Assembly (NCBI GenBank): GCA_044360195.1 | Contig: JBIKKT010000002.1 | Location: 31,247-95,246, forward strand | Reading direction: 5' to 3' | DNA: 64,000 nt | DNA from: Bdellovibrionota bacterium | GTDB taxonomy: Bacteria > Bdellovibrionota_C > UBA2361 > OMII01 | In this document: positions 1,453-6,621 of the stretch, piece by piece | Layout: the number at the start of each line of letters is the position of its first letter | How positions within the stretch are numbered: position 1 is the first letter of the stretch | Notes under the pieces: generated by a model | What the model was told of the DNA's origin: nothing | What the model saw: only the letters and a program-made list of their open reading frames with translations | Databases searched by the model: none | Made by a program: the position numbers and the translations under genes

Positions 1453-2940
1453 ATGGCTGTGCACATCTTTCCAACCGATAATCCTGCTATCGGCACGATT
1501 GAAGTTCCCGGCAATGTAGGCTCAGCGATAACAGTTATCGGCACCCCTACGATTCGATCTGCCTTCGATCCGAAGTGCCTCGAGCAGGCGATAAACACAC
1601 GCACAGCGCCCGGCGTAGAGTCGATAGTCATCAATCCGGATGCGCACGCGGGATACGGAGCACCTATAGGGTGCGTACTCGCCTCTCGGACGCATGTGTA
1701 TCCTGGCCCCATCGGAGTCGACATTAAATGTTCGATGAGTCTTCTACAACTTGATCTTCCTGCTGAAAAAATTGCAGAGAAGCAAGTTCGGCGTAAGCTT
1801 ATCCAGGCTATCGGTGATCGTATTCCGACTGGGCCGGGGAAAGGGGCTCGTTCTGTGCCGCGCGGCAAGGTGTTTGACGATGCGGTAGCACGAGCTGCTG
1901 TCATTGGCGGTGCTACTCAAGAGGTATGCGAAAAACTCGGTATCCCGATTGCCTGGACCGAGCGGTGTGAAGATGCGTTCCATCCGGGACACGATGGTAC
2001 TCAAGCTGCGCTTGAAGAGCGGTTAAATACGCTGGTCAAGAGCGGCGTCATCAGGAATCTATCTGACAAATTTCATCAGCTTGGATCGTACGGTGGTGGT
2101 AACCACTTTGGCGAGTGCAGCACCGTGTCCATCGAGGACAGCGCAAGGGCAAGAGAGATAGCTCAAGTATTTGGTCTTCGCGATGGACATGTCGCCTTTC
2201 TGTCACACTGTGGCTCGCGTGGTTTCGGTAATGCACTGGCGCGCAATCAGTTTTCTCTGCTTTATGATCTCTTTTCTCAGCGTGGTGTGCCTCTGCCTGG
2301 TGGTGACAAGGAGCTAGTGTACGCGCAGCTCGGCACACCGGAAGCTGATGCTTACCTTGATGACATGGCACTCGGTGCTAATTTTGCAACGGTCAATCAC
2401 TTGGTAATAAATGCGCTGGTGCTTGAAGCCTTTCAGGAGGTTTTCCCGGGTGTGACCGGCGAGCTGGTGTATTTTATCAGTCACAACATCGCGCGTCGGG
2501 AGCCGCTTGATGGTGAGATGGCGTGGGTGCACCGCAAGGGAGCTACACGGGCCTTCCCGGCCGGTCATCCAGGCTTGAAGGGGACGCGCTATGAATCCAC
2601 GGGTCATCCAATTCTCCTTCCAGGAAACCCACGGGATGGGTCAGTGGTGATGGTAGCGGAAGAGGGGGCGCGTGTGAGTTGTTACAGCGTGAACCACGGC
2701 GCCGGTAGGGCGCTTGGACGTCGTGCTGCATTTCGAACCTTGGATCAGAGCGCCGTAGATACAGAACTTGACCGGTTGGACATCTTGAGCAACTGCAGGC
2801 AATACCCGCTCGATGAGGCGCCGGATGCATACAAAAATTTTAAAGAGGTTCTGCGTTCGGTTGAAACTGCGGGGCTCGCCTCGACAGTCGCACACCTCAA
2901 GAGCCGATTTGTCTTGAAGGACGCTGCCGAGGCGGAGTGA
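1453..2940 (+). CDS. rtcB: RtcB family RNA-splicing ligase (3-phosphate/5-hydroxy RNA ligase)
   Basis: 495-aa ORF with RtcB signature blocks NPDAHAGYGAPIGCVLA, GVDIKCSM, SHNIARRE and NHGAGR. RBS-ATG context aaggtagctATG. Confidence 0.8.
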   Translation: MAVHIFPTDNPAIGTIEVPGNVGSAITVIGTPTIRSAFDPKCLEQAINTRTAPGVESIVINPDAHAGYGAPIGCVLASRTHVYPGPIGVDIKCSMSLLQLDLPAEKIAEKQVRRKLIQAIGDRIPTGPGKGARSVPRGKVFDDAVARAAVIGGATQEVCEKLGIPIAWTERCEDAFHPGHDGTQAALEERLNTLVKSGVIRNLSDKFHQLGSYGGGNHFGECSTVSIEDSARAREIAQVFGLRDGHVAFLSHCGSRGFGNALARNQFSLLYDLFSQRGVPLPGGDKELVYAQLGTPEADAYLDDMALGANFATVNHLVINALVLEAFQEVFPGVTGELVYFISHNIARREPLDGEMAWVHRKGATRAFPAGHPGLKGTRYESTGHPILLPGNPRDGSVVMVAEEGARVSCYSVNHGAGRALGRRAAFRTLDQSAVDTELDRLDILSNCRQYPLDEAPDAYKNFKEVLRSVETAGLASTVAHLKSRFVLKDAAEAE

Positions 2941-3774: not shown

Positions 3775-4137
3775 TTAAGCGCACAGCGCTCGTATTCGTC
3801 GCAGCAATGAGAGCATAAAACCAGACGAGCACAGGTATGGGAGGAGACTTTTATTGAGGCGGTCTGCTTGTACGGCAACTGTAACTAGGCGCTTGATCTC
3901 TTCGAGCGTGGCGTGCTCAAGCTGCTGTGGATTCTGCAGATAGGGCCGAGCCTCGTCTACATGTGCAAGCCAGTCAAAATCAGGTATCGCCAGGCTAGTC
4001 CTTTCCAGCTCGCATTTTATTTCACTAACCAGGGGGAGGTATTCTCCCGTAGTCACGTAAATATTCTGCGCTTCCTGGCAGTCGCCGGTTTCCAGCGACT
4101 CGATCAGATTAAAGAGTGAAGCGAACGGCTCCGACAT
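3775..4137 (-). CDS. hypothetical acidic protein
   Basis: 120-aa ORF with no recognisable motifs. A GGGGCG-loop-CGCCCC hairpin lies just downstream on its strand (3703..3721). Confidence 0.3.
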   Translation of the reverse strand: MSEPFASLFNLIESLETGDCQEAQNIYVTTGEYLPLVSEIKCELERTSLAIPDFDWLAHVDEARPYLQNPQQLEHATLEEIKRLVTVAVQADRLNKSLLPYLCSSGFMLSLLRRIRALCA

Positions 4138-4191
4138 GAGGTGGTAATTAAAGACGAGTTAGGCCGGAAAACTTACAGGAATATGGGGATA

Positions 4192-4264
4192 AGCTAACTG
4201 TGGGATTCGAACCCACGACCTGCGGTTTACAAAACCGCTGCTCTACCAACTGAGCTAAGTTAGC
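4192..4264 (-). tRNA. tRNA-Thr (anticodon TGT)
   Basis: Folded by hand on the minus strand. Acceptor GCTAACT/AGTTAGC, D-arm GCTC-AGTTGGTA-GAGC, anticodon arm GCGGT-TTTGTAA-ACCGC (U33, TGT, A37), T-arm GTGGG-TTCGAAT-CCCAC. No encoded CCA. Confidence 0.8.
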
Positions 4265-4526
4265 ATATTTCTTTACTACCAACTGCTTGTCCTCCGTAGC
4301 CTTGGCGAAGGAGGAAGCTAAGTTAGTAAACTGTAAACGAAACCCTACAGTAACTCGCACCTTTTTTCAATCGTTCAGCTCTATTGGGGTATGATTCTGC
4401 CCGGTTTACCTGTCCGAGGGGGTCATGCGACAGACAAAAAACTTACAAACTAGCCAACAGTTACAAGCCGCCGTATTTACTTGAAGAACGTAATTTACCA
4501 TAATGCCGCCCCATTGGAAGCTGTGT

Positions 4527-4602
<76 letters not shown>

Positions 4603-4610
4603 TTTTGTTG

Positions 4611-4742
4611 CCTACAACAACTTGGCTGCGCCAAGATTGTTGTGACGGGCAGGAGGTCCTGCACCCGTGTTTGATACCTACAGCAACTTGGCTGAGCCAA
4701 GATTGCTGTGACGGGCAGGGGGTCCTGCACCCGTGTTGCTGC
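4611..4742. repeat. tandem direct repeat, two copies of 66 nt, each with two stem-loops
   Basis: Unit A 4611..4676 and unit B 4677..4742 are about 90 percent identical. Hairpin 1 is ACAACAACTTGG-loop-CCAAGATTGTTGT and hairpin 2 is CGGGCAGG-AGGT-CCTGCACCCG. The A/B differences in hairpin 1 are base-pair compensatory (A-T to G-C). Confidence 0.6.
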
Positions 4743-4782
4743 GGGGGTAGCAATCGGCTTTCAATAAAGACCACTCTCAAGT

Positions 4783-4868
4783 GGTGAGGTGCCCGAGTGG
4801 CTAAAGGGGGCAGACTGTAAATCTGCTGGCTCCGGCCTACGGTGGTTCGAATCCACTCCTCACCACCA
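4783..4868 (+). tRNA. tRNA-Tyr (anticodon GTA), long variable arm
   Basis: Acceptor GGTGAGG/CCTCACC, D-loop CCGAGTGGCTAAAGG, anticodon arm GCAGA-CTGTAAA-TCTGC, long extra arm GGCTCCGGCCTACGG, T-loop TTCGAAT. Encoded CCA. Confidence 0.85.
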
Positions 4869-5414
4869 TTTTTCTCCTCCTCTGTAATAGCACGACATGT
4901 CGCTAGCCGGTTTTGGCCGACTGTTTTTGGACCGCGGACCTTCCAGGTCCGCTAGATATTTCAGCCAGCACGGAAGTACCGGGCGAAGCTAAACCTTCGC
5001 GGTCCCGGGGGCAGTCGCCAGCATGTTACTAGTAGCACTGCATTTTACGGTTGCGATCTTGCTCTCACCAGATACCGACCTTCCTGGGCCGGCTGGGGTA
5101 TGCTGTCCTCAGTGAAGCTGATCTCAAAAGAATCTGCGAGGCCAATGTTGCGAAAGCCTGCGCGCATAGCCTAGCTTACACTCCAAACTGTGTCCCCATT
5201 CCCACCCCCACGGCTAAGCCTTCGGCTACTGCAACCTCCAAAGCTGGAGGGTAAGGTTAATAACGGAGATACCGCCGCCCGGGGATTTTTACATCATGCC
5301 AGATCTGTAAAGGATCACCTGAGACGGTACATTTGGGGGGTTTATGCCCAACTTCCCCCAACCCACACCCCAGTGTTCCAATTTCCCCCGAATGTGATAG
5401 CATCCCCCGCACTT

Positions 5415-5490
<76 letters not shown>

Positions 5491-5517
5491 TTCTAAACGC
5501 GCCATTCTAGAAGTAGT

Positions 5518-6621
5518 ATGAGTCTTCCCCATGATGATTGCGTAGTTTTGGCACCTACGGCGGGCGATTCCGCCGAAGCCCGGACCCGTTCGCCGCTCTG
5601 GATGGTGAGTCAGGAGCCTCTGCTAAACGACCTCGTAGTCTACCTTGCTGCTGTTCGTGAGCAATTCACACAAGGCCCCAGTAAAGAGCTTCAACTCGTA
5701 TTTTCGCGCAAACACCTCAAAGAGTGCCGCAAAGCGTTTGACCGCATGATACGGAAAGGGGAGGAGAGCCTTCACCGCCTGTGTGAGCTGTTGTGTGCAG
5801 CATTAGTCGGGCGATATCAGCTTCAAAGTGTAGTCATCGGAGATGTTCCAACCAGTGGGGAGCGCTTTACTCTTACACAACTCATCTCGCAACGAGATCT
5901 CTACTCTACTATCGATCTTGACCTCGGTAACCGCCAACTTCAAAAGCTTAGATACTTCGACGGTCAATCGTGGATCGCGCCAGCGCTTGTAGCGAATATG
6001 GTTGAGTACCAACCTGTTGAACCCAATAGCTTCGGTGTTTTTAAGCTTATCAGTCGCATTAAAGCTGAAGAAGAGCTCTGGAATAAGGTAGTCGACGAGA
6101 TATTCGGGCTGGATTCCCTTGTAAAGCGCGATAAGCAGCTTCGGCATTTGAGTCACTACGTAAAGGATATCTTTGGAATAAAGATAGTTGTTGGGTCTCC
6201 TGATGAGGCTGCTGCTCTACATGCTCACCTGACAGAACTAACGTGGTCGGATGAGGCGCTAAAACTGCATCAGGCCGAGGTCACCTCTGAAACGGTTAGC
6301 CTTGATTTCGTTGAAACAAAGAACTACCTGGCTGAGCACGAAAAGAGTAGTGGCTGGGAAGCCATTAAGTCGGTGGTGTTGTGGAACGCCCGTATGTTTG
6401 AGATCCAGATTCAGCCGCTCTCAAACTTCTGGCGCGAGCGAGAGCACCTTACCAGAGAGAGCCACACTGGATTTAAGAGTCGTCGTGAAGAGATCCGTCA
6501 GCAGGTTGCAGAGAGTATTCCGCTCTTTCGCTTCTACCAAAATCTGTTGCGCTGGCTTTTCCAGAATCCTGACGGACCGGCTCCGGTCTTCCCGGGGATC
6601 TCGGTTGCGGTATCCGAGTAG
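5518..6621 (+). CDS. RelA/SpoT-homolog (RSH) nucleotidyltransferase-domain protein (small alarmone synthetase-like, possibly toxSAS-like)
   Basis: 367-aa ORF starting 28 nt after tRNA-Trp. The central region carries the synthetase-fold motifs GVFKLISRIKAEEELWNK (compare RelQ GRVKSxESIxEK), KDIFGIKIVVGSPDE (the Asp beta-strand, compare DIAGLRII) and FEIQIQPLSNFWREREH (compare EIQIRTxxMDFWAxLEH). Extra N- and C-terminal regions of about 120 and 50 aa have unknown function. Confidence 0.5.
   Translation: MSLPHDDCVVLAPTAGDSAEARTRSPLWMVSQEPLLNDLVVYLAAVREQFTQGPSKELQLVFSRKHLKECRKAFDRMIRKGEESLHRLCELLCAALVGRYQLQSVVIGDVPTSGERFTLTQLISQRDLYSTIDLDLGNRQLQKLRYFDGQSWIAPALVANMVEYQPVEPNSFGVFKLISRIKAEEELWNKVVDEIFGLDSLVKRDKQLRHLSHYVKDIFGIKIVVGSPDEAAALHAHLTELTWSDEALKLHQAEVTSETVSLDFVETKNYLAEHEKSSGWEAIKSVVLWNARMFEIQIQPLSNFWREREHLTRESHTGFKSRREEIRQQVAESIPLFRFYQNLLRWLFQNPDGPAPVFPGISVAVSE

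Follow-up and report, generated by a model that had tools for sequence, protein, structure and literature searches.

The spacer between the threonine and tyrosine transfer RNA (tRNA) genes in a 64,000-nucleotide (nt) stretch of a Bdellovibrionota genome (assembly GCA_044360195.1, contig JBIKKT010000002.1, positions 31,247 to 95,246; hereafter the window, in whose coordinates features are given) holds two tandem units, each of two hairpins, that belong to a conserved family of structured repeat modules linked to tRNA 3′ ends. That these hairpins are under selection is well supported, and within the range of the searches the family is confined to a single clade of uncultivated freshwater Bdellovibrionota. 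We propose, with a probability of about one half, that its modules act at the RNA level, as a protein-recognized trailer or spacer of the tRNA precursor.

Tandem Double-Hairpin Units in the Thr-Tyr Spacer

The Thr-Tyr spacer measures 180 nt and lies between tRNA-Thr(GGT) at 4527-4602 and tRNA-Tyr(GTA) at 4783-4868. Tandem Repeats Finder reports one array only, at 4604-4737, with a period of 66 nt, 2.0 copies, 91% matches, no indels and a score of 226, and a repeat search places the two units at 4604-4669 and 4670-4735. An earlier reading of this DNA from its letters alone (the sequence-only reading) had described two adjacent 66-nt double-hairpin copies, and both searches bear it out, its phase of 4611 and 4677 being an equivalent registration of the same repeat. 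Six differences separate unit 1 from unit 2 (4608, 4610, 4617, 4629, 4640 and 4654). Two of them, 4617 (A to G) and 4640 (T to C), are partners in hairpin 1, where an A-U pair becomes G-C with pairing kept, as had also been noted from the letters; 4608 and 4610 lie in the linker, 4629 and 4654 lie in the two loops, and none of the six breaks a stem pair. In a simulation with six random substitutions, no broken pair together with at least one double change arose with P ~0.005. By itself this single compensated pair is only suggestive of selection; it becomes decisive only together with the family data.

Read along the + strand, unit 1 is preceded by the U-rich linker TTTTGTTGCCT (4603-4613), which spans the distance from the tRNA 3′ end to hairpin 1 and closes on a nearly invariant CCU. 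Hairpin 1 (4614-4643; ACAACAA-CUUGGC-UGC-GCCAAG-(A)-UUGUUGU) has a stem of 13 base pairs (bp), made up of 7 bp, a bulged A and 6 bp closing a 3-nt loop. Hairpin 2 sits at 4646-4667 within the segment 4644-4669 (GA-CGGGCAGG-AGGU-CCUG(CA)CCCG-UG); its pairing, CGGG-CAGG with CCUG-CA-CCCG, leaves a CA bulge, and it is the shortest version of a hairpin that differs in tip length across the family while the base of its stem is conserved. Unit 2 has the linker TTTGATACCT at 4670-4679 (from the repeat comparison), hairpin 1 at 4680-4709 with the compensated G-C pair 4683/4706 (motif match and pair check), and hairpin 2 at 4712-4733 within 4710-4735 (motif match), all on the same strand.

The minimum-free-energy fold of the spacer contains both copies of hairpin 1 and the second hairpin 2; the first hairpin 2 is only partly formed in it, and the evidence for its CA-bulged pairing is the pair check. 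Against shuffles, the fold of the spacer has z = -4.07, and within the 64 kb both hairpin motifs are confined to it, with 0 expected in shuffles. We also considered, and rejected, a pairing of the linker TTGTTG with the 5′ arm of hairpin 1, which is seen in unit 1 of the window only, not in unit 2 or at other loci, and which we attribute to chance in T-rich and A-rich sequence.

Directly behind unit 2, at 4736-4753 on the + strand, stands one more hairpin, TTGCT-GCGGGGGT-AGCAA. The sequence-only reading had called it a third related hairpin, and the hairpin does exist, but it is not a third kind of element: its TTGCTG matches the hairpin 1 3′ arm of a truncated last unit. The seven-module array of the relative L033 ends ...CCAAGATTGCTGTGGTGGGGGACAGTAAACGGCTTTCAATAAAG / ...AUUGCUGUGGUGGGGGACAGUAAACGGC, which is homologous to 4736-4753, and because of this match we regard the window's hairpin as the leftover of a truncated terminal unit.

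A Repeat Family Linked to tRNA 3′ Ends

A seed pattern that contains no tRNA sequence, ACTTGGC-N2-5-GCCAAGA-N5-10-GACGGGCAGG, found 26 loci in 16 assemblies of a species-representative genome collection, with two or three loci in several of them. All of the carriers are metagenome-assembled genomes (MAGs) labeled Bdellovibrionota, Bdellovibrionales or with older proteobacterial names. A slightly looser pattern added more metagenome contigs with the unit and a handful of unrelated matches that were set aside; excluded were L043, L049, L056, L057 and L060, as chance matches in unrelated GC-rich DNA, and L045, L047, L051 and L061, as carriers of a different motif. A covariance model, R1, built from 35 units, found 101 non-overlapping units in the fetched DNA. 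The further copies and the conservation in relatives that the sequence-only reading had proposed to look for thus exist, at many tRNA loci and in at least 16 related genomes.

Among arrays free of a contig-edge cut, 36 of 37 adjoin the 3′ end of a tRNA gene on the same strand (ARAGORN). Nine kinds of tRNA carry them: Thr-GGT, Thr-TGT, Tyr, Gly-GCC, Gly-TCC, Gly-CCC, Ile-GAT, Lys and Met. The Ile-GAT array sits ahead of tRNA-Ala, inside the Ile-Ala pair that is typical of ribosomal RNA (rRNA) spacers, and another lies between two tRNA-Gly genes. Across all nine tRNA species the distance is nearly fixed: of the 37 tRNA-linked arrays measured, 33 have the start of hairpin 1 at 9-11 nt past the tRNA end, and the other four begin with a module that is partial or degenerate. 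An array comprises 1-7 hairpin-1 modules, and a MAG has at most 3 loci, a count of pattern loci in incomplete MAGs rather than of whole-genome scans.

Compensatory Variation around an Invariant Core

The module follows the tRNA on the same strand and consists of a U-rich linker ending in CCU, hairpin 1, GA and hairpin 2. Across the family, hairpin 1 has a stem of 13-14 bp with an invariant apical CUUGGC/GCCAAG, an invariant bulged A and a 4-bp box of free sequence. Hairpin 2 combines an invariant base (CGGGCAGG/CCUG-CA-CCC) with an apical stem of variable length, which is always a GC hairpin with 0-5 extra pairs and occurs in 34 length or sequence variants. Nearly invariant as well are the A-A/U-U pairs of hairpin 1 and the flanking CCU and GA, and variation is free in the box, the loops and the hairpin 2 tip. 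Since the bulged A, the CA bulge, CCU and GA stay invariant while box and loops vary, specific recognition is favored over mere stability.

Covariation, which the sequence-only reading had suggested analyzing, was assessed on an alignment (A2) of 35 units made with MAFFT and not fitted to any structure. The two-hairpin structure leaves 93% of cells paired in this alignment, and in the family alignment the figure for hairpin 1 is 98.5%. Four pairs are hypervariable (columns 15-18 with 40-43), one of them using U-A, G-C, C-G and A-U; together they show 56 double changes, 0 one-sided changes and 5 mismatches. Their covariation score in the 35 units is 0.208, against 0.062 after shuffling (reached in 0 of 500 shuffles) and 0.04-0.08 with the partner shifted by 1-3 columns, and across alignments it is 0.21-0.22, against 0.06-0.08 shuffled and at most 0.08 in the slid controls. 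RNAalifold predicts the same stems independently, and double changes occur in 17 pairs of the 101-unit alignment fitted to the model. The lower stem of hairpin 1 reads AUGCAAA/UUUGCAU in L040 and ACAACAA/UUGUUGU in the window, four pairs having changed on both sides. Units within an array and orthologous loci are not independent, so that counts of cells overstate the number of evolutionary events; free of this caveat are the more than 20 different box variants, which are almost always Watson-Crick paired.

The sequence-only reading had inferred selection on RNA structure from the one compensated pair. Selection on the hairpin structure holds; that RNA rather than single-stranded DNA is its object is suggested indirectly, by co-orientation, the 9-11 nt spacing and the operon context.

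Two possible relations of the conserved and variable stem sequences were considered and rejected. The likeness of CUUGGC/GCCAAG to the acceptor stem of tRNA-Thr (CTTGGGC/GCCCAAG) involves 5-6 nt only, which is at chance level, and the same motif occurs at Gly, Ile and Lys loci. A relation of the box to anticodon or codon is suggested by Gly-TCC loci with ATTCCAA/TTGGAAT, but other Gly-TCC loci have TTGC, TTTC or TTAC, and the Thr and Gly-GCC boxes are unrelated.

Inheritance and Variation in Copy Number

Relatives were fetched through homologues of a 367-amino-acid protein encoded near the window's tRNA genes. The closest species representative, L033, is 86% identical to the window over 4.7 kb and has seven hairpin-1 modules at Thr-Tyr, against two in the window. 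The Thr-Tyr spacer of L005/L007 (= L040) measures 308 nt and contains homologous units, that of L008, L011 and L012 measures 24-29 nt and lacks the repeat, and that of L014 is an unrelated 102 nt. L033, L034 and L040 come from the Lake Mendota series. In each of the seven single-unit arrays the unit is complete, with a perfect hairpin 1; in longer arrays, complete units are mixed with modules that consist of hairpin 1 alone, and arms are occasionally chimeric.

The box differs by tRNA across genomes: TTNC (UUNC in RNA) at Gly-TCC; TCCG, TCCA or CCCG at Gly-GCC; and TGCA, TGCG or CAAC at Thr-GGT. At Gly-TCC the linker, TTTTGTTCCT (UUUUGUUCCU as RNA), is identical in 6 loci (L022, L025, L039, L044, L054 and L064). 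Box and linker variants follow the tRNA species, which indicates that the loci are orthologous and predate the divergence of the species, rather than being recent copies of a master element; as these variants show, the element is inherited locus by locus.

One version of the Thr-Tyr spacer stands apart, that of contig L002 (L002:1-177, compared with window 4557-4782). Identity of L002 to the window is 99.97% in the sequence that begins 7 nt before tRNA-Tyr. Farther upstream, L002 has another Thr-Tyr spacer, of 134 nt, and a tRNA-Thr 3′ half that lacks an encoded CCA and shows one difference in the acceptor stem. The contig may carry a genuine recombinant allele, or its tip may be a chimera of the assembly.

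A Proposed Role of the Module in tRNA Precursors

On the reading that we prefer, the module would be transcribed as part of a tRNA or rRNA precursor, which in the window would be a Thr-array-Tyr transcript started at the promoter-like site at 4476-4504, and would act as RNA, in the form of a 3′-trailer or spacer element bound by a protein. Most likely, it would position or control an endonucleolytic cut in the U-rich linker beside the tRNA 3′ end, after which it would be released as a small folded RNA. At such a linker, 3′ endonucleolytic processing is expected by analogy with the action of RNase E on Escherichia coli tRNA precursors. Copy number may shift by replication slippage or unequal recombination between units, the extra tandem copies probably not being individually required. 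The context of the modules speaks indirectly for an RNA: their orientation is always that of the tRNA, their distance to it is fixed, and they occur inside the polycistronic units Thr-Tyr, Ile-Ala and Gly-Gly.

Given that hairpin 1 stands 9-11 nt from the tRNA end with an invariant bulged A and apical stem, we speculate that it is a docking site for a nuclease or RNA-binding protein peculiar to the lineage, which would gauge from there the distance back to the tRNA end, with the locus-specific box marking individual precursors. This would amount to a previously unrecognized, hairpin-guided form of tRNA 3′ maturation or quality control in Bdellovibrionota, and we consider it a distinctly doubtful extension of the RNA reading.

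Several points weigh against an RNA-level role. Transcription of the arrays, and any stable product of it, are things that we infer, and the protein partner is a postulate for which no candidate has been identified. In the strand test, which rests on the logic that G-U cells are tolerated only if the tRNA-sense strand folds as RNA and compares them with A-C cells, that strand showed 52 G-U against 38 A-C cells (p = 0.17). The four variable pairs contain no G-U at all in the 35-unit alignment, and the missing G-U in the box would be as compatible with a DNA hairpin, or with the correction of a quasi-palindrome from a template, as with RNA. A processing signal does not need tandem multiplicity, and modules without hairpin 2 are numerous. 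Because the Thr-Tyr spacers of some close relatives lack the element, it is dispensable at a given locus, and the array of L028, the sole exception to tRNA linkage, follows the stop codon of an open reading frame (ORF). Finally, the 24-base "invariant" core is partly fixed by the seed pattern, and its conservation is in part imposed because that pattern selected the loci; the extra units that the R1 model found in the same arrays show the same conservation as the pattern-found ones.

Alternative Explanations

Several of these points would be natural for a repetitive or selfish hairpin element of the REP/BIME, BOX or MITE kind that inserts or amplifies beside tRNA 3′ ends, the complementarity of its arms being kept by a transposase or recombinase that reads a single-stranded DNA hairpin, or by template-switch correction, rather than by a function in RNA. 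We consider this explanation unlikely, though several findings speak for it. Tandem copy number differs among close relatives (2 modules in one, 7 in another), chimeric or truncated modules make the arrays mosaics, an example being unit 3 of L017 with its mismatched arms, and the element is missing from some orthologous spacers. In the 35 units the variable pairs are strictly Watson-Crick, with C-G to G-C flips and no wobble intermediate, the G-U/A-C ratio is not significantly asymmetric, one copy follows an ORF, and other hairpin repeats also accumulate near tRNAs in the clade. However, loci are few per genome and nearly all tRNA-linked, co-oriented and 9-11 nt from nine tRNA species. Box and linker variants are locus-specific across genomes instead of uniform within a genome, with no sign of recent spread from a master copy, and the bulges are invariant, which template-switch correction should erase. 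No transposase was noticed beside the arrays, the carrier genomes not having been scanned for one.

A phage origin of the repeat was rejected. The lone viral match, L042:1-1221 at the end of an IMG/VR contig, shows an integrase-like ORF, then the 3′ half of tRNA-Gly(GCC), then a family unit; this is the boundary of a prophage or integrative element in a tRNA-Gly of the lineage, with the repeat on the host flank, and as such it too argues against a mobile DNA element.

Quite unlikely, to our minds, is a role of the processed units in trans, as small RNAs (sRNAs) or protein sponges of the kind of 3′ETS-leuZ or rrA/rrB/rrF, with tandem copies raising the dose. A place in tRNA and rRNA precursors guarantees high expression coupled to growth, stems and bulges conserved in sequence suit a protein-binding module, and tandem multiplication fits a sponge with many sites; precedents exist (PMC8144298). 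Yet such a role leaves the fixed distance to the tRNA end unexplained, 13 of 37 arrays have a single unit, and there is no conserved single-stranded seed because the loops are variable. A CsrA-type reading of the GGA motif in the loop of the window's hairpin 2 was likewise dropped, the motif not being conserved.

Very unlikely is a transcription signal, whether a terminator or attenuator, a pause hairpin, or a put-type cis antiterminator in which two hairpins modify RNA polymerase. In size and two-hairpin layout the unit resembles the put RNA of phage HK022, eleven arrays close a transcription unit and face a convergent gene, and a simple scan calls the tip of hairpin 1 with ATTGTTGT terminator-like. 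A U-run behind either hairpin is nevertheless absent from most units, and arrays between co-transcribed tRNAs and inside the Ile-Ala spacer cannot terminate efficiently, on which grounds an intrinsic terminator was rejected; moreover, L035 has separate, canonical terminator-like hairpins with T-runs behind its unit. The next ORF is convergent in 11 of the 19 arrays with enough downstream DNA, which speaks against an antiterminator for, or a leader of, downstream genes.

A spacer hairpin might also have been duplicated recently and locally, the outcome that the sequence-only reading had named as its own refutation, and be without function. The presence of only two copies in the window, with none elsewhere in its 64 kb, would correspond to this, but the explanation can be dismissed: at least 16 genomes have the unit, at nine kinds of tRNA locus, with a conserved core and massive compensated variation in hairpin 1.

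Three further structural comparisons failed. Domains V/VI of group II introns, where a bulged-A hairpin stands beside a hairpin with a 2-nt bulge, have the reverse order and different helix lengths, with no Rfam match here; a type III antitoxin-like array would be followed by a toxin gene, and none follows; and a T-box or riboswitch-like element is contradicted by loops that are not conserved.

Comparison with Known Systems

E. coli has 22 tRNA-linked repeats (TLRs) at ten tRNA and rRNA loci, one to five per locus, which have been known since 1978 and are co-transcribed and processed, with their function mostly unknown (PMC8144298). Examples are rtT downstream of tyrT-tyrV, and rrA, rrB and rrF after 5S rRNA, which bind Hfq and CsrA; the defining feature is that the 18-19 bp at the 3′ terminus of each repeat are the same as those that end the preceding tRNA or rRNA gene (PMC8144298). 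The family described here is likewise found directly downstream of a stable-RNA gene in the same unit, one to several per locus, with 1-7 modules at nine kinds of tRNA. In contrast to TLRs, its arrays lack a copied tRNA 3′ end: at 16 loci, the longest exact word that the array shares with the final 22 nt of the tRNA was 5-7 nt, against a shuffled mean of 5.1-6.1 and a maximum of 9-11. Its unit is also shorter, 66-80 nt against ~178 bp for rtT, and is a double hairpin supported by covariation, in another phylum and without sequence or Rfam similarity. In the window only tRNA reaches the Rfam gathering score, and even with E relaxed to 10 no match falls in the spacer. The sequence-only reading had offered the rtT repeats downstream of tyrT as precedent; the analogy holds for position only.

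RNase E releases 3′ETS-leuZ and the internal spacers of tRNA operons, pieces of precursor that act as sponges of sRNAs (PMC8144298). These pieces of a tRNA precursor have a function of their own, as the present modules might, but they are single-copy sequences that pair single-stranded with specific sRNAs, not conserved hairpin modules, whereas in the present family stems and bulges are conserved and loops variable. REP/BIME, the pneumococcal BOX and MIRU are short imperfect extragenic palindromes, often tandem or modular and varying in copy number between strains, that occupy tens to hundreds of sites in either orientation. The Bdellovibrionota family shares with them the short, tandem, copy-number-variable extragenic hairpins; unlike REP and MITE elements, it stands at all loci but one on the tRNA 3′ flank, on the same strand and at 9-11 nt, as judged from incomplete MAGs. 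The HK022 put RNA, finally, is a cis-acting RNA of ~65-70 nt with two adjacent stem-loops 1-2 nt apart and conserved irregularities, which precedes terminators and protects the genes behind it; in the present family convergent genes lie opposite 11 of 19 arrays, the units are tandem, and there is no sequence similarity. We found no description of repeats at Bdellovibrionota tRNAs in the literature. The modules are thus repeats embedded in stable-RNA operons that belong to no described family, and they are apparently undescribed.

Promoter, tRNA Genes and Gene Neighborhood

A promoter-like site for the Thr-Tyr unit, TTTACT and CATAAT separated by 17 nt, lies at 4476-4504 and is the sole sigma-70-like site on the + strand of 4100-5700; the same scan shows none between tRNA-Thr and tRNA-Tyr. 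The block GTATTTACTTGA-N17-CATAAT/CATACT (window 4473-4504) is invariant in 7 relatives. With a conserved promoter upstream of tRNA-Thr and none in the spacer, tRNA-Tyr would be transcribed through the array. tRNA-Thr (4527-4602, + strand; ARAGORN; Rfam tRNA, 72.7 bits) has an encoded CCA. Between the terminal remnant and tRNA-Tyr, the leader TCGGCTTTCAATAAAGACCACTCTCAAG (4754-4782, + strand) is the part of the spacer common to relatives without the repeat, and a similar ...TTCAA..CCACTCATC block precedes tRNA-Tyr in L008, L011, L012, L014, L031 and L034. tRNA-Tyr itself (4783-4868, + strand; ARAGORN and Rfam) would, according to the promoter scan, be reached only by transcription across the repeat.

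Downstream in the window follow tRNA-Trp, a 367-amino-acid RelA/SpoT-like protein, sufBCD and then secE-nusG-rplK...; the window is identical to a JGI metagenome contig (L001). The spacer from tRNA-Tyr to tRNA-Trp (4869-5414), where many bacteria have tuf, is 546 nt of non-coding DNA without tandem repeats. Directly upstream of tRNA-Trp, a motif GTTCCAAT...TGTGATAG (5375-5400) that is conserved in relatives resembles a separate tRNA-Trp promoter. The ORF of the 367-amino-acid protein (5518-6621) lies between tRNA-Trp and sufBCD, upstream of secE-nusG, a position normally without insertions; its Pfam match to RelA/SpoT (small alarmone synthetase-like) is weak, and it has more than 800 homologues, Anaerolineae among them. 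A gene for the RNA ligase RtcB stands 1.6 kb upstream of the tRNA cluster in the window (1453-2940) and also in L014; since unrelated tRNA loci have the repeat as well, no link between the two was found. Of the 2-kb bins of 1-64000, only 4001-6000 has a GC skew that is slightly negative, all others being positive, and the cumulative skew climbs almost steadily to 3.4, which suggests that the whole window lies on one replichore with the + strand, that of the tRNA operon, as the leading strand.

Other Repeats in the Clade

A second, unrelated family of tandem repeats, with the approximate unit TTTCCCGCTCGRCGYTNNGGYCCAGGGGCTGNCGCCCCTCTCGCC..., occurs 3′ of tRNAs in the same clade: at L011:2204-2470, L012:885-1110, L019:2870-3140, L026 ~1500-1750 (minus strand, downstream of tRNA-Ala) and L002:44-170. 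It is found after tRNA-Tyr, after tRNA-Ala and after a unit of the present family, and possibly replaces the array in L002. Behind the unit that follows tRNA-Gly-TCC in L035, about seven tandem terminator-like hairpins with a T-run (GGGGCGGCGCTTCGCTGGCCCC TTTTTTTT) extend to the contig end (L035:1-209, minus strand), and in the Tyr-Trp spacer of L031, downstream of tRNA-Tyr (~2380-2470, minus strand), there is a hexanucleotide microsatellite, (CACCGG)n, of ~8 copies. The tRNA 3′ flanks of this clade seem generally prone to gather structured tandem repeats.

The motif that set four of the excluded matches apart is CCTGTCGCGNCTTGGCNNCGCCAAGCGAGCCAMGACGGGCAGG, at L045:3337-3400, L047:3086-3140, L051:4718-4775 and L061:1000-1055, with no tRNA nearby. 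It shares CTTGGC..GCCAAG and GACGGGCAGG with the family but has CCTG before the hairpin; it has no Rfam match, and of the four only L045 gained a score with the R1 model (23.6 bits). It may be a distant or circularly permuted relative of the family, or unrelated.

Significance

What does this family add to the old problem of repeats in tRNA and rRNA operons? It offers a cleaner case, with a compact and strongly covarying structure that keeps a strict distance and orientation to nine different tRNAs, and close relatives supply natural variants in copy number and in presence or absence. In practice, the arrays break metagenome assemblies, as seen from the contigs that end within them (L016, L030, L037 and L046). 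Should the modules prove to be a DNA element, they would be an unusually target-specific hairpin repeat. If they act at the RNA level, they would point to a lineage-specific factor that works on tRNA precursors, in a largely predatory phylum whose RNA biology is almost unexplored.

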